27,680 bases of DNA, from the IMG/VR virus record IMGVR_UViG_2585427778_000003; one strand, given 5' to 3'. Within the stretch, counting starts at the first letter, position 1. Each line of letters begins with the position of its first letter. The translations under genes and the position numbers were made by a program. This stretch comes from a virus (lineage: Duplodnaviria > Heunggongvirae > Uroviricota > Caudoviricetes). This document shows positions 2,725 to 13,334 of this stretch, piece after piece. The notes beneath the pieces are model-generated. The model had not been told where the DNA came from. It was given only the letters and a program-made list of their open reading frames with translations, and searched no databases.

Positions 2725-3269
2725 TAACCCAAAGCATCATTGACGGGCTTCAGCACCTTGCGTTCAAACCACGTCAGTTTTTCTTCATCTTCTCCGGCCG
2801 TCTGACCACCGGATTGTTCCGCGCTGCCGGTTGTCTGTTTTTTCGCAGTGGTTTTGCCGGTTGATCTGGCTTCCCGCTTTTCCTGTACGCTAATATGTTC
2901 CGCCAGCGTGAAAGTCACCATCCAGGACATTTTCCCGTCCTGCTGTGGTGCATCCAGCATTCCGCTGAATGTGGCCTCACGAAAATTCACCGCTCTGGCA
3001 ACCTCATGCGCAACACGGTATGTCTGTCGTTTCCCGCTACTATCGGTAGCGCTGGCCAGTTCAAAGATACGCTTCAGAATCTCCGGATTTTTGAAAGGAA
3101 TTTCGCCACTGATACGCAGCTCCTTTCCTTTTGCCCCCTGCTCAGATTTTGACGTTGCGCTGGTCTGCCCTGACTGGTCTTTATCCTGAAACTGCTGTGA
3201 GACTGTCACGCGCATATTCTTCAGCTGTATGGCCTCGCCGTTAAGCGCCAGTGTCGGGATCGAAGTCAT
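2724..3269 (-). CDS. Hypothetical tail-cluster protein, 181 aa, with low-complexity K/Q/S/T-rich segments
   Basis: ORF translationally coupled to the downstream gene (TAATG overlap); position after tail-fiber assembly gene. Confidence 0.4.
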   Translation of the reverse strand: MTSIPTLALNGEAIQLKNMRVTVSQQFQDKDQSGQTSATSKSEQGAKGKELRISGEIPFKNPEILKRIFELASATDSSGKRQTYRVAHEVARAVNFREATFSGMLDAPQQDGKMSWMVTFTLAEHISVQEKREARSTGKTTAKKQTTGSAEQSGGQTAGEDEEKLTWFERKVLKPVNDALG

Positions 3270-3966
3270 GAATCATTCCCTTTATTCCATCAAGATTATC
3301 GCCAACCAGCATCATGGCAGCGGTGTAAACGGCAGACTGCTGCGGAATGTCCTTCACCAGTTCCAGTAACATGGTGCCGGTGTCTCCGCTGGCAGTAAAA
3401 ACCCACGCTCTGGCACTCTTCCCCTGTAAATCGTTCAGGCCGTTGGCCACATCACTGATAAGTTGGTCACGCAGCTGCGTGAACTCGCCCAGCTGTTTTT
3501 TCAGCCCTTCGATATCAAACCCGGCACCCGCCGCCTTTTGTGCCTGGCTGATTGCCGCAGCAGATAAAGCTGCCCTGCTGGTTGGTACAGACAGCGGAAT
3601 GGACGCAGGTAACGCAGCGGCGGTTTTCGCAGGGATCTGCATCTTTTCAATAGCCAGCGCTGCGGCGGATTGCGCCAGCCGTTTGACCTGCGTGAATGCC
3701 GGGGCGGGGAAAATCCCGACCAGGTTATTCAGGCTGGCCATAAAGTTTTCCTGTGTCTGTCCGGTGACCATCATAATCACCACGTCCACATTCCCCCCTG
3801 TTCCGGCCAGGCGTTCAGCAAGATAGCGAACAGCATTAACCGGGCTGAGATATGCCCCGTTTGCTGTCTGCTGTCCCAGCCCATAAATCCACGGATGCGC
3901 AGGGACGATCGAACAGTTCGACGCAGCAACAGAATCCGTGAAGGCCAGACGTGCTTCACGCCACAT
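3241..3966 (-). CDS. Hypothetical tail-cluster protein, about 242 aa
   Basis: ORF following tail fiber assembly gene; start placed at ATG 3964-3966 (MWREARL...), 11-nt overlap with upstream stop; the longer start at 4002 lies deep inside the upstream gene. Confidence 0.4.
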   Translation of the reverse strand: MWREARLAFTDSVAASNCSIVPAHPWIYGLGQQTANGAYLSPVNAVRYLAERLAGTGGNVDVVIMMVTGQTQENFMASLNNLVGIFPAPAFTQVKRLAQSAAALAIEKMQIPAKTAAALPASIPLSVPTSRAALSAAAISQAQKAAGAGFDIEGLKKQLGEFTQLRDQLISDVANGLNDLQGKSARAWVFTASGDTGTMLLELVKDIPQQSAVYTAAMMLVGDNLDGIKGMIHDFDPDTGA

Positions 3967-7894: not shown

Positions 7895-8220
7895 AAATCC
7901 ACCTGATATGAAAGCGTGCCAAAATCGTATGTGCTCGCGGTCACCCACAGCCGTTTCTGGCTTTCTTCACTGATTTCCACCGTTCCCGGCACAATGCGCT
8001 CATCGTTTTCAACCAGTAATTCCAGTTGTGTAAAAATATCTGCCCTCAGTGTCGGACTGCGTTCCGCAATTAATTGCGTGGCTAATCCGCTCTCAATAAT
8101 GGCGTGAATAATGTCCTGCCCGATACTTTTTCGGTTATTGCATAATTCAGGCTCATTACCGGCATTTAATGAGAAGTCACCATTCTCAATAAGCAGGTCA
8201 ATATAAAGAATCTCACTCAC
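7891..8220 (-). CDS. Baseplate wedge protein, gpW / gp25-like, 109 aa
   Basis: GTG start overlapping tape-measure stop (GTGA at 8217-8220); size and position as P2 gpW. Confidence 0.55.
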   Translation of the reverse strand: MSEILYIDLLIENGDFSLNAGNEPELCNNRKSIGQDIIHAIIESGLATQLIAERSPTLRADIFTQLELLVENDERIVPGTVEISEESQKRLWVTASTYDFGTLSYQVDL

Positions 8221-9086
8221 GCATTAAGCTCCTGCCATTCCATTAGCTGGGAGGGTGAAAGCGCTTCTTTAGTATGAAAATGCACTTCACCAATTTTACG
8301 GCTGTTATCCGTTACTGATTTAGAATTACTGCTAATTGTTTTACTGATACCACCTTTATCAACGCCTTTTAATTCACCGCCAGTTGAAAGGGTATTCGTT
8401 GTCAGTGCCGGTTGAGATTCGTTCGCCAGTGAAATATCGACGCCCGGAATTTTATTGAGTTTTCCGACAATCCAGTTCCACGATTTCAGGAACCCGCCTT
8501 TGATGGTCTGCCAGACGTTATCAAACAGGGAAACAATCCCGCTGGCCATGCCGCTTAACGCCTGTGACGGTGAAAACCCGGTCAGCAGCGCAATAAAGCT
8601 GTTCCAGCCGTCCGTGATCCATTGCCACGCAGCGGAAAACACGCCGGCAAGCCATTCCACCACACCAGCCACGGCGGTAAACGCTGCCGTATTCATCACC
8701 GCCGCTTTCACATCATCCCAGTGTTTAATCAGCAGATAACACCCGGCTGCCAGCAGAGCAATCGCCCCGATAACCAGCAGAACCGGCCAGCTCATCAGGT
8801 TGATGCCAATACCGGCCATAATCGCCGCCATGCGCACGGCCAGCAGCGTACCCCGCAGGAATTTCAGCGTCAGGTTCCACGCCACAACAGCCTTTGAGGT
8901 AATCCAGACAGTGGCCGCGTAAATCTTCGTGACCAGCGTCAGGGCGCTCCAGAGTCCCTTCAGACCCACCAGGATAAATTTTGAGACGCCCATGACAATA
9001 TTTGTCACCGCGCCCGCTGCCGCCACACCAAACAGCGCAAGCTGCACGTAACCAATCACCCGCGCAATATTGGGAAACATCTGCAT
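8217..9086 (-). CDS. Tail tape measure protein, C-terminal hydrophobic part (289 aa), same frame as the upstream N-terminal part
   Basis: Long hydrophobic/Gly-Ala-rich segments typical of tape-measure C-termini; ATG 9084-9086 lies 2 codons after the in-frame TGA at 9093-9095. Confidence 0.6.
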   Translation of the reverse strand: MQMFPNIARVIGYVQLALFGVAAAGAVTNIVMGVSKFILVGLKGLWSALTLVTKIYAATVWITSKAVVAWNLTLKFLRGTLLAVRMAAIMAGIGINLMSWPVLLVIGAIALLAAGCYLLIKHWDDVKAAVMNTAAFTAVAGVVEWLAGVFSAAWQWITDGWNSFIALLTGFSPSQALSGMASGIVSLFDNVWQTIKGGFLKSWNWIVGKLNKIPGVDISLANESQPALTTNTLSTGGELKGVDKGGISKTISSNSKSVTDNSRKIGEVHFHTKEALSPSQLMEWQELNA

Positions 9087-9092
9087 CCAGCG

Positions 9093-10184
9093 TCAGAACG
9101 TCTGCCCCATATCGGCCAGGCGGTTCAGGACCGGGTACAAAACCGGGATCAACGTCAGTCCGATCACCGTCTGAATGGCTTTAAGGATTTGTACAAAGCG
9201 ATCCCACGGCTTGACCAGCTTCCCGGCCATCTCCTGTGTACGCTTCAGCCCGTCAGAGCCGCCCAGTTCGGTGATATTACGCTGCAGTAACGCCACATTG
9301 CCGTACAGGTGTTTTATCACCGCTGAACTGTCACCAAATGCCGCATCCAGCTCCGCCTGGGCTTTCAGGTTCCCTTCCAGGCTTTTGCCGTATTTGCCCT
9401 GCAGCTTGATCAGCATTTCAGGCATGGACAGCATTTTGCCGGTGGAGTCCGTGAAGGACAGCCCCAGCTTTTTAGCTCCCTCCATCGCGCCGGTCATGAA
9501 GCCTTCGTAAGCGCTACTGGCTTCTGTTCCCAGCGTACGATTTAGCTGTCCCAGCACCGCCAGCTGTTCATCCAGCCCGACGCCGTAGTTAGTCCCGACA
9601 CCTCGCGCCCCTTCCATCAGGTCTTTGATGGTACCCATTTCGGTACCGAAGACCTTGCGCATATACACCATTTTCCCCGCCAGTTGCTCAGCGAACTGGA
9701 CTTTACCCAGCCGCGCCGCATCGGCGGAAAAGTTACCGTACATCTGCCCCATGAACTCCGCCGTGTCGGCGGATGTGGATTTCAGGGCAAATGCCAGCGT
9801 ATTAGCGACCTTCGTCACTTTCGGCAGCTCGCTGGCGGTAAGGCCGGCAATGGAAGCGTTAATGTTCTCTGTGGATTTGACGAACTCCACCGCGCTGGCA
9901 CCGTAGGTCATGCTGAACCGGAGCGCGTCACGCTGTACTGTCTTTAATGCCTGATTATCAATCCCTTTTGCGGCGGCATCATTCAGCGCGTCGTACATTT
10001 CGATAGCCGGCGATAACGCGCCTTTTATGGCCATCCCCGTACCGGCCAGCCCCAGCACGCCGCCGCCAATCTGCGAAAAGGCCGCTTTTGATTTTTCCGC
10101 AAAGCCGGTGACGCTGCCCTGCGCCTGTTTTAACGGGCGCGTCAGCTTATCAATCAGGCTTAATGTAAAATCTAACTGTTTCAT
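9093..10184 (-). CDS. Tail tape measure protein, N-terminal part (363 aa), ends at in-frame TGA
   Basis: Ala/Gly/Leu/Lys-rich, predicted helical; directly preceded by chaperone gene whose -1 frame ends on this gene's ATG (ATGA at 10181-10184). Confidence 0.65.
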   Translation of the reverse strand: MKQLDFTLSLIDKLTRPLKQAQGSVTGFAEKSKAAFSQIGGGVLGLAGTGMAIKGALSPAIEMYDALNDAAAKGIDNQALKTVQRDALRFSMTYGASAVEFVKSTENINASIAGLTASELPKVTKVANTLAFALKSTSADTAEFMGQMYGNFSADAARLGKVQFAEQLAGKMVYMRKVFGTEMGTIKDLMEGARGVGTNYGVGLDEQLAVLGQLNRTLGTEASSAYEGFMTGAMEGAKKLGLSFTDSTGKMLSMPEMLIKLQGKYGKSLEGNLKAQAELDAAFGDSSAVIKHLYGNVALLQRNITELGGSDGLKRTQEMAGKLVKPWDRFVQILKAIQTVIGLTLIPVLYPVLNRLADMGQTF

Positions 10185-10629
10185 TCCGTGCCTTTAAATG
10201 CAGTGCTGATTCCGTTAGCAACCGCTATTCGCATATTTTCCCAGTGGCGATTATCCAGCCAGATAGCAGCGGAAATATCATCCACGGAATCCTGACCGTG
10301 TGGTAAATAATGGCGACGCAAAATTAAATACTGTTCGAGTCCGTTCTGTTCAATTGCCCGGACTCGTTTTGTCAGTTTTTTACTTCAATTTCCAGTTCTG
10401 GCGCATAAAGCTCATTCACTTTTCCGGCAAGCTGGAGCGCTGCACCCGGACGTTTCAGAATGTCTTCCAGCGCTTCTTTACTTTCCGTTGCCACAATGCG
10501 TACAAGATAATTGTGCGCGGGTGCCACTTTATTATCCATCGCCATTTCGTTGATGAACTTATTATAAGCGGTCTGATTCGGTTCAAAGGTAATTTCTTTT
10601 TTGCATACAACCAGGTTAATTTTTTCCAT
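10181..10629 (-). CDS. Predicted -1 frameshift fusion product of the tail chaperone (E+E' / G-T type), about 147 aa
   Basis: Slip site GTA AAA AAC (complement of 10375-10383); -1 frame open for 62 codons with no stop until TGA at 10181-10183 overlapping the tape-measure ATG. Confidence 0.55.
10372..10629 (-). CDS. Tail assembly chaperone (role of P2 gpE / lambda gpG), 85 aa
   Basis: Small ORF immediately upstream of tape measure ending in slippery heptamer A_AAA_AAC followed by stop. Confidence 0.6.
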   Translation of the reverse strand: MEKINLVVCKKEITFEPNQTAYNKFINEMAMDNKVAPAHNYLVRIVATESKEALEDILKRPGAALQLAGKVNELYAPELEIEVKN

Positions 10630-10915
10630 AAATAACTTTCTCTCTTAAATTAATTTCATCAACAAGCGCGTTATGCCGTGCAGCACACTGCCCGTATAAC
10701 TCCAGATAAAGTGTCAGTAATTCCGCCGCGTCTTTTCCCTGCGTTCCACTCAGGCGCGGCAGCTGCGTGACGCATTTAGTTTTCAGGTTTTCCTGATAAC
10801 GTACGTTCGGTACTGGTGACGGCGTCGTTGTACATGCGGACAAAGTCATCAGACAGACACTTATTGGTAAATACCGGCTTAACCACTTCCGTGCGAATTT
10901 CACGCGGTGGCGCAT
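10616..10915 (-). CDS. Outer-membrane spanin (Rz1-like lipoprotein), 99 aa, overlapping Rz in another frame
   Basis: Basic N-region, hydrophobic stretch, lipobox LSAC, Pro-rich mature region; starts inside the Rz gene and extends beyond it. Confidence 0.65.
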   Translation of the reverse strand: MRHRVKFARKWLSRYLPISVCLMTLSACTTTPSPVPNVRYQENLKTKCVTQLPRLSGTQGKDAAELLTLYLELYGQCAARHNALVDEINLREKVIYGKN

Positions 10916-11108
10916 TTTTCAGTGCCTCCAGTTTATCTTCCAGCCGGCGACCAGATGAACCGGCAATTTCAGCCAGTTGTTCCCCGGTCGCGGTGACCGC
11001 TTTTGAGACAGTCAGATCAATACTGTCCCGCTGCCAGCCGGCCGTTTTCCAGCCGGCTATAAATGCCAGAGCAAGGGTGAATAACCAGCCTGACACGACG
11101 CGATCCAT
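10776..11108 (-). CDS. Inner-membrane spanin (Rz-like), 110 aa
   Basis: N-terminal TM segment (WLFTLALAFIAGW), charged coiled-coil-like remainder; ATGA-type overlap with endolysin stop at 11108. Confidence 0.65.
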   Translation of the reverse strand: MDRVVSGWLFTLALAFIAGWKTAGWQRDSIDLTVSKAVTATGEQLAEIAGSSGRRLEDKLEALKNAPPREIRTEVVKPVFTNKCLSDDFVRMYNDAVTSTERTLSGKPEN

Positions 11109-11754: not shown

Positions 11755-12210
11755 TTATCCAATCAGGTTTTCCGTGGCTTCCGCTTCCAGATACGGCACA
11801 CCGTTGATGTTGACGAACTTCGGACTTGTCACGAAGTATTTGATTTTATGCGTGGACACACTGCCACCCTTCGGATCACCATCCAGAACGCTGTTGAGCT
11901 GCAGCTTGTTACCAAAGGTTTCCACCTTCATTTCTTCTCTGCCGGCTTTGGCGTAAAAAAGGAAGTCAACCGGAGGAATGCCACGCCATGACCCCGCTGA
12001 ACGGGCTTTGGCTGTCAGAACCTGCAGCACTTTGGAACTGACTTCAATTTCACCCTCGGCAGCAACATCACCGTCCACATACCCGTCAGGGACACCGCGC
12101 GTCTGTGCCGCCGCTCTGTTATCGGTGATATCCAGCGAAATTTTTTCAATGTGGATCAGGTCGCCGTCCAGATAGATGTCAAAGGACATCCCTGAAATAC
12201 GTTTGGTCAT
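11755..12210 (-). CDS. Tail tube protein (contractile tail), 151 aa
   Basis: Follows sheath-sized gene with ATGA overlap at 12207-12210; size typical of tube proteins. Confidence 0.6.
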   Translation of the reverse strand: MTKRISGMSFDIYLDGDLIHIEKISLDITDNRAAAQTRGVPDGYVDGDVAAEGEIEVSSKVLQVLTAKARSAGSWRGIPPVDFLFYAKAGREEMKVETFGNKLQLNSVLDGDPKGGSVSTHKIKYFVTSPKFVNINGVPYLEAEATENLIG

Positions 12211-13334
12211 GCGCTGGCCTCCAGACTTGCATCCAGTAACAGACTGATGGTGATCTGCAGCGGTACTTCATACGTACGCACCACAATGTAAATATCCACC
12301 GCCTTTTTGTTCTTCCAGACAATGGTCACGTCACCGTCCTGTGGTGGTTTCACCTCGCCCGGAAATGACACGCCGTTGATGCTGGCCGCAGTGGACATTT
12401 CCCGCAACGGACGGGCAAACAGCGTCTGGTGTGCGGCAATACTGCCCGGTGTACTGTTAAGTGAGCGATCGGCAATCTTACCGATGGCCAGCAGACGAAC
12501 GCGGCGTGCAGCCTTATCCACAATACGCAGCGTCTCGATGGACTGGTAATCACCGCCCTCAACGTCCAGCGTGCGCCCGTCAGCCCAGTAAAAGCCGTCA
12601 TAGTCCGGATACCACATCGGCACGCTGTAGCGCTGTGCTTCCAGCGCCTGAAGGGTCGCCAGTTCCAGCGTTTCGCCGGCACCATCTTTCGGCAGTTCAT
12701 CACTGCCCGTACTCAGCAACGCGCCTGTTTTCACCCGTGCCGGACTGTCGGCGATGGTGACCGCACGGTTGCAGAGACGACCAGCCAGCACGCCCGGTTC
12801 ATTCCCCCAGAGACGGGGTACCAGCTGTACCGCTTTTTCCGCAATACCTTCCTGAAGGGTGGACAGACGCACCAGATAATCCGCCTGGGCTTCACCCTGC
12901 TGCATCCCCTGAACCGCCAGAATGAACCACACCCAGCGCCCGTATTTAGCAATCAGTTCAGATCGCAGCGTTGCCGCCTGGTTAATCTGCGCTTTCGCGG
13001 CCACATCATCAGACAGCACCACACCTTCCACCGAACAGGAGACCTGTGCGGCCTTAACGGCATCCACCCATGCCCCCGGCTCGCTGTCTGCGGCCAGCAC
13101 ATGAACAAATCCCCACCAGTTCTGGCCGGCGTTCGCCAGTGCGGCCAGAACATCACTTTTTAACGGGCTGTCACCCTCGCCCAGCAGCGCATCAAAATCA
13201 CTCTGTGCGTTAACTGCCAGCGTCTTACCTACATTTTTGGTTCCCGTGCCGATAAACAGCAGCGTGCGCTCCACTTCCGTGGTTTCACCCAGCAGCTGAT
13301 TTACCTGGTTTACGGTCACAATTGGCCAGGTCAT
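12207..13334 (-). CDS. Tail sheath protein, 375 aa
   Basis: Position after R/S-like genes and before tube; ATGA overlap with S-like gene at 13331-13334; size near P2 FI. Confidence 0.6.
   Translation of the reverse strand: MTWPIVTVNQVNQLLGETTEVERTLLFIGTGTKNVGKTLAVNAQSDFDALLGEGDSPLKSDVLAALANAGQNWWGFVHVLAADSEPGAWVDAVKAAQVSCSVEGVVLSDDVAAKAQINQAATLRSELIAKYGRWVWFILAVQGMQQGEAQADYLVRLSTLQEGIAEKAVQLVPRLWGNEPGVLAGRLCNRAVTIADSPARVKTGALLSTGSDELPKDGAGETLELATLQALEAQRYSVPMWYPDYDGFYWADGRTLDVEGGDYQSIETLRIVDKAARRVRLLAIGKIADRSLNSTPGSIAAHQTLFARPLREMSTAASINGVSFPGEVKPPQDGDVTIVWKNKKAVDIYIVVRTYEVPLQITISLLLDASLEASA

Follow-up and report, generated by a model that had tools for sequence, protein, structure and literature searches.

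What does a ribosome do when it reaches the end of the gene for the tail assembly chaperone in this prophage-borne locus: does it always stop there, or does it sometimes shift into another frame and continue? The locus lies in a stretch of 27,680 nucleotides (nt) from a tailed virus (Caudoviricetes; IMG/VR record IMGVR_UViG_2585427778_000003), which we refer to as the window, and the element in question is a candidate -1 frameshift site at the 3' end of the chaperone gene on the minus strand. A first-pass annotation had proposed that a slippery heptamer at this position joins the chaperone to an extension encoded in the -1 frame. We consider it very likely that programmed -1 recoding, most likely by the ribosome, takes place at the end of this gene and yields a fusion of the chaperone with a domain known as DUF6890. 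This frameshift interpretation is strongly supported by comparative evidence, which we weigh below together with three rival explanations. At the level of sequence, all predictions for a frameshift of the lambda G/GT or P2 E/E' type were borne out.

The 0-frame open reading frame (ORF; 10372..10629, minus strand) encodes a chaperone of 85 amino acids (aa). The protein matches the Pfam family PF10963 (Phage_TAC_10) over model positions 1-82 of 82, with an E value of 5.5e-36 and 123 bits (gathering cutoff 25.7), and RefSeq names it a 'putative phage tail assembly chaperone'. On the minus strand, the gene ends with the codons GAA ATT GAA GTA AAA AAC TGA, so the first-pass reading of an 85-aa ORF that closes with GAA GTA AAA AAC TGA agrees with both the sequence and the ORF boundaries. 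The 0-frame codons GTA AAA AAC contain the heptamer A_AAA_AAC (10375..10381, minus strand) in the X_XXY_YYZ phase, as had been claimed; this is the form of heptamer expected of a canonical bacterial -1 signal. A 0-frame TGA stop adjoins the heptamer (10372..10374, minus strand), in the context UGA-C.

The surrounding stop codons leave little room for a shift elsewhere. Because a -1-frame TGA lies just upstream of the heptamer (10385..10387, minus strand), a productive -1 shift is possible only in the 10 nt at the 3' end of the chaperone gene, essentially the heptamer itself. Most related loci likewise have a -1 frame that extends just 10 nt upstream before it is closed. A +1 frameshift was ruled out, since the open stretch of the +1 frame in the related loci amounts to only 5 nt on the upstream side and 4-121 nt on the downstream side. 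It is important to emphasize that A_AAA_AAC alone is unremarkable in the window, where it occurs 10 times against 6.6 expected occurrences, and that the case for this site therefore rests on its context and its conservation. An upstream element resembling a Shine-Dalgarno sequence can stimulate frameshifting, and is optional, as in dnaX and IS911. We found none by inspection: the sequence 6-17 nt upstream of the heptamer is CTGGAAATTGAA, which contains no GGAG, AGGA or GAGG. No Rfam family was found at threshold around the site.

We examined conservation in related loci drawn from viral contigs, species-representative genomes and GenBank phages, 121 of which are distinct in sequence. All 121 carry an in-phase A_AAA_AAN heptamer, which is AAAAAAC in 116 loci, AAAAAAA in three and AAAAAAG in two. 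The codon that precedes the heptamer's AAA is GTA in 113 loci, CTA in five and ATA in three, such that its third base is A in every locus, while GTA accounts for 20% of the valine codons elsewhere in the same genes. Similarly, the asparagine codon of the slip site is AAC in all 116 loci that have one, compared with 44% of asparagine codons elsewhere. A change of the last heptamer base from C to T would be silent in both frames (AAC to AAT in one, CTG to TTG in the other), yet it was never found. Such fixation of silent positions is, as a pattern in aligned sequences, the signature of selection acting on the nucleotide sequence.

The loci cover a wide range of hosts and phages: prophages of Escherichia coli, the phages HP1 and SI7, F108 of Pasteurella, phiO18P of Aeromonas, PV94 and yong1 of Vibrio, and the Pseudomonas phages phi3 and PfPro. 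In HP1, HP2, F108, PV94, yong1, phi3 and PfPro, the chaperone is only 36-46% identical to that of the window, and the position of the site is unchanged. On this evidence, an in-phase slippery heptamer has been retained throughout the HP1-like branch of Peduoviridae. The first-pass annotation made its proposal depend on conservation of the -1 frame in related phages, and this part was borne out: the arrangement is kept in the 121 distinct loci, and the -1 frame shows the periodicity of coding sequence described below.

A sole locus without the heptamer was observed in Citrobacter sp. FP75 (near 3225..3250 of that sequence), where the chaperone ends TTC GTA AAG AAA TAA. The -1 ORF is nonetheless intact and homologous (KEISARLASVERNGLEQ...). 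The locus contains an A_AAG tetramer, a sequence that is itself prone to shifting in E. coli (PMC4066793), and this tetramer may be a variant slip site.

The stop codon next to the heptamer raises the possibility of a different kind of slip. In 118 of the 121 loci a stop codon directly follows the heptamer, and one could imagine a shifty stop, at which a single tRNA-Asn in the P site slips from AAC to AAA, after decoding AAC normally, while the poorly recognised UGA-C occupies the A site. The next codon would be CUG, the fusion would read VKN-LTK across the junction, and digestion with Glu-C is predicted to release the junction peptide VKNLTKRVRAIE. This route would fit the weakness of A_AAA_AAC as a tandem-slip site in E. 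coli. It would also fit the Pseudomonas phages phi3 and PfPro, which are two of the three loci that lack an abutting stop and which have the efficient heptamer A_AAA_AAG, with a 0 frame that extends 8 codons further. However, the same two phages indicate that the heptamer, and not the adjacent stop, is the invariant element, given that their 0 frame runs past it. Vibrio sp. Of7-15 likewise retains the heptamer with a sense codon, TCA, ahead of the stop. Most importantly, the heptamer is kept in full, its first A included, also where the preceding codon has become CTA or ATA, and a single slip on A_AAC would not need that base. For this last reason we rank the shifty stop below tandem slippage, and we regard it as an unlikely account of the site.

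Given tandem slippage on the heptamer, translation in the -1 frame would read KK-LTKRVRAIEQNGLEQYLILRRHYLPHGQDSVDDISAAIWLDNRHWENMRIAVANGISTAFKGTE (KKLTKRV...AFKGTE*). The resulting extension comprises 64 codons (LTKRV...AFKGTE; 10184..10375, minus strand), two more than had been proposed, and the predicted fusion is correspondingly 149 aa long rather than roughly 147. At its end, a TGA (10183..10181) shares bases with the ATG of the tape measure (10184..10182) in an ATGA at 10181..10184 on the minus strand, which confirms the first-pass reading, and most related loci share this overlap. The extension matches phrog_7050 and the Pfam family PF21830 (DUF6890); the latter match has an E value of 1e-25 and 89.3 bits (cutoff 23.6), and aligns model positions 1-44 of 44 with extension residues 21-64.

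Among 71 distinct close relatives, variability at codon positions 1, 2 and 3 is 0.094, 0.050 and 0.277 in the -1 frame, which is similar to the values of 0.07, 0.05 and 0.311 for the chaperone. The same pattern (0.08, 0.062 and 0.225) is present in the 60 nt between the heptamer and a downstream TTG codon. By this measure the extension evolves as protein when read in the -1 frame, and so do the 20 codons that precede the TTG, the only start codon available. Moreover, when we reconstructed 19 fusions from divergent phages and prophages, they aligned without gaps through the junction VKK|L.

This TTG codon is relevant to another explanation, namely that no recoding takes place and that DUF6890 is an independent small gene. 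The first-pass annotation had described the region as free of conventional ORFs. In fact, a 46-aa ORF initiated by TTG occupies 10181..10321 on the minus strand, and RefSeq annotates it as a 'DUF6890 family protein' with the TTG at 10321 as its start. A separate protein of 45-74 aa is annotated by RefSeq and in several phage records, and the TTG does exist in the window. However, the start codon is not conserved: the first ATG, GTG or TTG of the -1 ORF occurs anywhere between codons 2 and 55 among the 121 loci, and four loci have none. The DUF6890 entries in databases (P0121-P0157) accordingly differ in length, from 45 to 74 aa, and have inconsistent N-termini. Some annotated starts are not even ATG; several entries begin MTKRV, in which the methionine corresponds here to a CTG that directly follows the slip site. 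One entry, P0150, extends back across the slip site in the -1 frame (MRAEAGYHRKKLTARV...).

Other observations also argue against an independent gene. Coding-type conservation and fixed length reach 20 codons upstream of the TTG, up to the heptamer, and an independent gene would leave the fixation of synonymous sites in the heptamer unexplained. An AlphaFold model of the extension is a helical hairpin (mean pLDDT, the predicted local distance difference test, 71.5) whose first helix spans residues 5-25, and according to this model a product that starts at the TTG, at residue 21, would lack most of that helix. In the interval between the chaperone and the tape measure we found no promoter-like site and one terminator-like site at the level of chance, and a separate transcription unit for the extension is therefore unsupported. 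Taking these points together, we consider an independent DUF6890 gene to be highly improbable, and the 46-aa ORF is most likely, as judged from sequence conservation, the 3' part of the frameshift extension.

The extension model had no significant match in BFVD (best E 1.6), and in the PDB a profile search turned up nothing beyond chance matches, with E values above 0.07. The structure model of the chaperone is of low confidence (pLDDT 60), and its Foldseek matches in the PDB are meaningless (best E 2.6). In a database of 5.8 billion proteins we found no full-length fusion, as none of the matches to the 149-aa query extends over more than 57% of its length.

As a check, the first-pass annotation had suggested a search for a stimulatory stem-loop or pseudoknot downstream of the heptamer. 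A candidate stem-loop of 8 base pairs (bp) begins 8 nt 3' of the heptamer (10336..10366, minus strand). Its 5' arm is CGAGUCCG (10366..10359), its loop has 15 nt (10358..10344) and its 3' arm is CGGACUCG (10343..10336), all on the minus strand. For the stem-loop by itself the centroid energy is -15.3 kcal/mol, and the minimum-energy fold of an 82-nt segment has -17.5 kcal/mol, with a z-score of -2.36 relative to shuffled sequences.

The evolutionary evidence for this structure comes from the ESSI-2 clade, for which we aligned 54 distinct sequences. The stem-loop is the RNAalifold consensus of this alignment, with pairing in 99.3% of stem cells. Thirty sequences close the stem with G-C and 23 with A-U, and a neighbour-joining tree built from flanking sequence implies at least three independent switches between them. 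In addition, there are 15 independent single changes in the stem, all of them compatible with wobble pairing, and the synonymous codons used in the arms (CGA/CGG, GTC/GTT, GGA/GGG, CTC) all preserve pairing. Pairing is lost only as a terminal C-A, which two sequences have, and as an A-C, which one pseudogenised copy has. Within this clade, then, the structure is evolutionarily maintained at a spacing that lies in the range of about 5-9 nt from the heptamer that is expected of a -1 signal.

The pseudogenised copy, in Enterobacter sp. EA-1, is the only one in which the closing pair is broken (A-C). Its chaperone, at about 3170..3320, seems to be disrupted by a frameshift, with a premature stop and a match that is offset by one base. 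The broken pair fits relaxed selection in a decaying prophage.

The close clade thus has a downstream structure, the covarying 8-bp stem-loop, but the comparison of clades led us to reject a universal one. Different hairpins are located 7 nt from the heptamer in yong1 (14 bp, -25.9 kcal/mol) and SI7 (8 bp), and hairpins just 0-4 nt from the heptamer are found in Ewingella, PV94 and YenM324. In Aeromonas, HP1 and Aliivibrio, the clade comparison found no such hairpin near the heptamer. As separate observations, F108 has a 13-bp stem that begins 24 nt past the heptamer (-22.7 kcal/mol), and no local window in F108 is as stable; HP1 has a stem similar to this distant one. The codons for N-G-L form the 5' arm in HP1 and F108, whereas they form the 3' arm in the window's clade, and this swap of arms suggests structural turnover.

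The hairpin is also pertinent to the possibility that the frame changes during transcription rather than translation. RNA polymerase could insert an extra A in the A6 run, so that a minority of mRNAs would encode the same VKK-LTK fusion. The product would be identical to that of tandem slippage, three lineages (PV94, yong1 and Thalassotalea) have an A7 run, and the low predicted efficiency of the ribosomal route means that even rare slippage by the polymerase could contribute. However, slippage by bacterial RNA polymerase becomes appreciable from runs of about 7-9 or more A or T residues, and the runs here are mostly shorter: A6 in 116 of the 121 loci, A7 in three and A6 followed by G in two. 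A conserved, covarying hairpin 8 nt downstream suits a ribosome, and not the nascent-RNA side of a polymerase. The Pseudomonas relatives, moreover, changed the last base to G, which creates the best bacterial ribosomal heptamer and not a longer run. Finally, IS1 has this A6C heptamer too, and there it is listed among proven sites of frameshifting. We therefore judge transcriptional slippage to be very unlikely as the source of the fusion.

We return to ribosomal tandem slippage, and infer the following course of events from the signals at the site. Most ribosomes would stop at the UGA (10374..10372), releasing the 85-aa chaperone. A minority would slip back by 1 nt on A_AAA_AAC, tRNA-Asn exchanging AAC for AAA and tRNA-Lys pairing with AAA again. 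These ribosomes would then read the 64 codons of the -1 frame, ending on the start codon of the tape measure. The product would be a 149-aa protein of about 17 kDa, in which the Phage_TAC_10 domain is followed by the DUF6890 helical hairpin. Tandem slippage would create the junction VKK-LTK, for which the predicted Glu-C junction peptide is VKKLTKRVRAIE. The 8-bp hairpin 8 nt downstream probably increases the frequency of slipping, and the abutting stop may slow decoding at the slip site and thereby stimulate it.

The fusion is expected to amount to about 1% or less of the chaperone, because values for A_AAA_AAC in E. coli reporters are low: 0.163% without stimulators, 0.189% with the stimulators of IS911 and 0.739% with the IS3 pseudoknot (PMC4066793 Table S3). 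Under the same conditions, the corresponding values for AAAAAAG are 0.29, 4.3 and 39% (PMC4066793 Table S3).

As for function, the best guide is the analogy with lambda G/GT and P2 E/E+E'. Lambda serves as the functional model. There the tape measure is coated by G, which also binds it as the G part of GT, and the tube subunit is bound by the T part (PMC5009743). Here, by analogy, coating of the tape measure would fall to the Phage_TAC_10 domain and recruitment of the tube protein (11755..12210) to the DUF6890 hairpin, such that the tube polymerises around the tape measure. A more speculative idea, which we regard as possible and rather doubtful, is that HP1-like phages deliberately keep a weak heptamer, with its output set by the shifty stop and by lineage-specific hairpins, in order to hold the ratio of fusion to chaperone at a tunable and very low level; DUF6890 would then be an unrelated solution to the tube-recruiting role of T and E'.

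Several points weigh against our interpretation, and they should be considered together. The heptamer A_AAA_AAC is weak in E. coli (0.16% bare, 0.74% when a strong pseudoknot is present). The related loci also lack phylogenetic independence from each other. The hairpin is not unusual in its stability, as 32% of local 55-nt windows fold as stably, and for this reason we rejected stability as an argument in its own right; in addition, distant clades such as Aeromonas, HP1 and Aliivibrio either lack the hairpin or have it at another place. The extension has no likeness in sequence or fold to lambda T or P2 E', so that the partners we propose for it are proposed by analogy only. Lastly, there is a nonsense codon in the tape-measure gene, and the window's own copy may no longer build tails.

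This last point requires a description of the setting. The window originates from a prophage of E. coli, and its region 9900..10950 recurs with 100% identity in prophages of 12 complete E. coli genomes, most of which come from pig, pork or cattle sources. Escherichia phage ESSI2_ev239 (Evevirus, Peduoviridae) is 98% identical to the window. The tape-measure gene (8217..10184, minus strand; PF10145) has an in-frame TGA at 9095..9093, which breaks the 655-aa protein into ORFs of 363 and 289 aa. At position 9095, read on the minus strand, the window has T where E. coli NT1F10 has G, which converts a GGA glycine codon to TGA; 11 other E. coli genomes have the same 99.8% identity over the TGA stretch (1 mismatch in 401 nt). 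Probably either the window's prophage copy is tail-defective or base 9095 is a sequencing error.

The tail genes on the minus strand have the order typical of HP1: sheath, tube, holin, M15 endolysin, two spanins, chaperone and tape measure. The sheath gene (12207..13334, minus strand) encodes a DUF2586 protein, and the tail tube gene (11755..12210, minus strand) belongs to PF10772, the family of HP1 Orf24. Lysis genes thus sit between the tube and the chaperone, as they do in HP1-type genomes.

Two further observations concern the immediate surroundings of the chaperone gene. The spanin genes overlap, with an Rz-like i-spanin at 10776..11108 on the minus strand and an o-spanin at 10616..10849 (RefSeq) that has a weak LysC/Rz1 match. 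The chaperone's ATG (10629..10627) falls within the final codons of the o-spanin ORF, which means that the lysis cassette and the tail chaperone are tightly packed, and they are possibly translationally coupled. On the plus strand, opposite both the chaperone and the slip region, there is an antisense 111-aa ORF with a GTG start (10300..10635), which is not annotated in related records and is probably spurious.

Our findings have consequences for annotation. We found a joined coding sequence in none of the eight distant phage records that we inspected, nor in three records from the close clade; for HP1, F108 and phiO18P, the records give the chaperone half only, or two separate 'hypothetical proteins'. 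The literature that we searched, from which Xu et al. 2004 with its table of frameshifting phages was absent, contained no mention of DUF6890, of PF10963 or of a frameshift in HP1 orf26. The phenomenon itself is textbook knowledge, and none of the records inspected annotates the specific case, that of Phage_TAC_10 with DUF6890 in HP1-like Peduoviridae. We conclude that the DUF6890/phrog_7050 'proteins' of Enterobacterales and HP1-like phages are most likely not free-standing genes, and are instead the C-terminal extension of a frameshifted Phage_TAC_10 chaperone. The DUF6890 family itself seems to have arisen from the annotation of a frameshift extension as a gene in its own right.

This conclusion would correct a systematic annotation error and give a function to a domain of unknown function. 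It adds one more instance of a rule established in 2004 and leaves the understanding of tail assembly unchanged. Its value lies mainly in annotation and in the series of sequences that it provides for the study of a weak heptamer, as the 121 sequences form a natural series on bacterial recoding at A_AAA_AAC, on hairpin turnover and on a possible contribution of the adjacent stop.

How does this locus compare with known systems? Xu, Hendrix and Duda reportedly defined, in 2004, a conserved class of tail-assembly-chaperone gene pairs of the lambda G/GT type that are joined by a -1 frameshift. By that definition, the short and the frameshifted proteins are produced in a fixed ratio, are both needed for tail assembly and do not occur in virions. 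In the present locus, a second frame, shifted by -1 and without a conserved start of its own, overlaps the 3' end of the first; an in-phase slippery sequence that is conserved among relatives is located within the overlap; and the gene pair is placed directly upstream of the tape measure, with the tube gene further upstream. Judged by these sequence-level features, the site is a member of this class of frameshifting pairs, and it belongs to neither the E/E+E' nor the G/GT protein family. The first-pass annotation had invoked the arrangement of lambda G/GT and P2 E/E'; as a statement about gene architecture this stands, and as a statement about sequence it does not. In hhalign comparisons, the fusion profile showed no homology to P2 E+E' (PF10109 Phage_TAC_7 and PF06528 Phage_P2_GpE; probability 0.2%) or to lambda GT (PF06894 and PF06223; probability 0.16%), and a Pfam scan of the fusion with E values up to 1 matched neither PF10109/PF06528 nor PF06894/PF06223. 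The first-pass annotation had suggested comparing the -1 frame with E' or T-domain sequences; profile-profile comparison detected no such likeness.

P2 is the closer of the two in general organization. It shares with the present locus the family Peduoviridae, a contractile tail, a chaperone of about 90 aa directly upstream of the tape measure and a -1 shift near the chaperone's 3' end, and the fusions have lengths of about 142-149 aa in both. In both, the extension was made into a separate small Pfam family, with DUF6890 in the position of PF06528. However, the P2 heptamer is T_TTT_TTG rather than A_AAA_AAC, the P2 0 frame goes 6 codons beyond the heptamer whereas here the stop adjoins it, and the lysis cassette that separates the tube gene from the chaperone here has no counterpart at that place in P2. 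The frameshift is annotated in P2 and unannotated here.

Lambda G/GT has in common with this locus an overlapping gene pair upstream of the tape measure and a heptamer near the end of the first gene. The lambda tail, by contrast, is non-contractile, and the T extension has 144 aa as against 64 aa here. As at this locus, where the overlap is the ATGA, the extensions of both lambda and P2 overlap the start of the tape measure, in their case by 8 nt. The lambda heptamer, G_GGA_AAG, is of the efficient bacterial type that ends in AAG, in contrast to A_AAA_AAC, which is weak in E. coli.

The best precedent for the heptamer itself is IS1, in which A_AAA_AAC at insA-insB' directs a proven low-frequency -1 shift in E. 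coli and coincides with reduced synonymous variability (PMC4066793). IS1 differs in that the product is a transposase and the site is without an established stimulator, while the site here serves a phage chaperone and is accompanied by a conserved hairpin and an abutting stop. The true homologues of both halves are HP1 orf26, F108 orf31-32 and phiO18P gp36-37, which were each recovered as two tblastn pieces in two frames with 36-59% identity. The ESSI-2 clade's downstream hairpin has not been kept in these phages, and what HP1, F108 and phiO18P do share with the window is the slip site itself, GTA AAA AAC followed by a stop.

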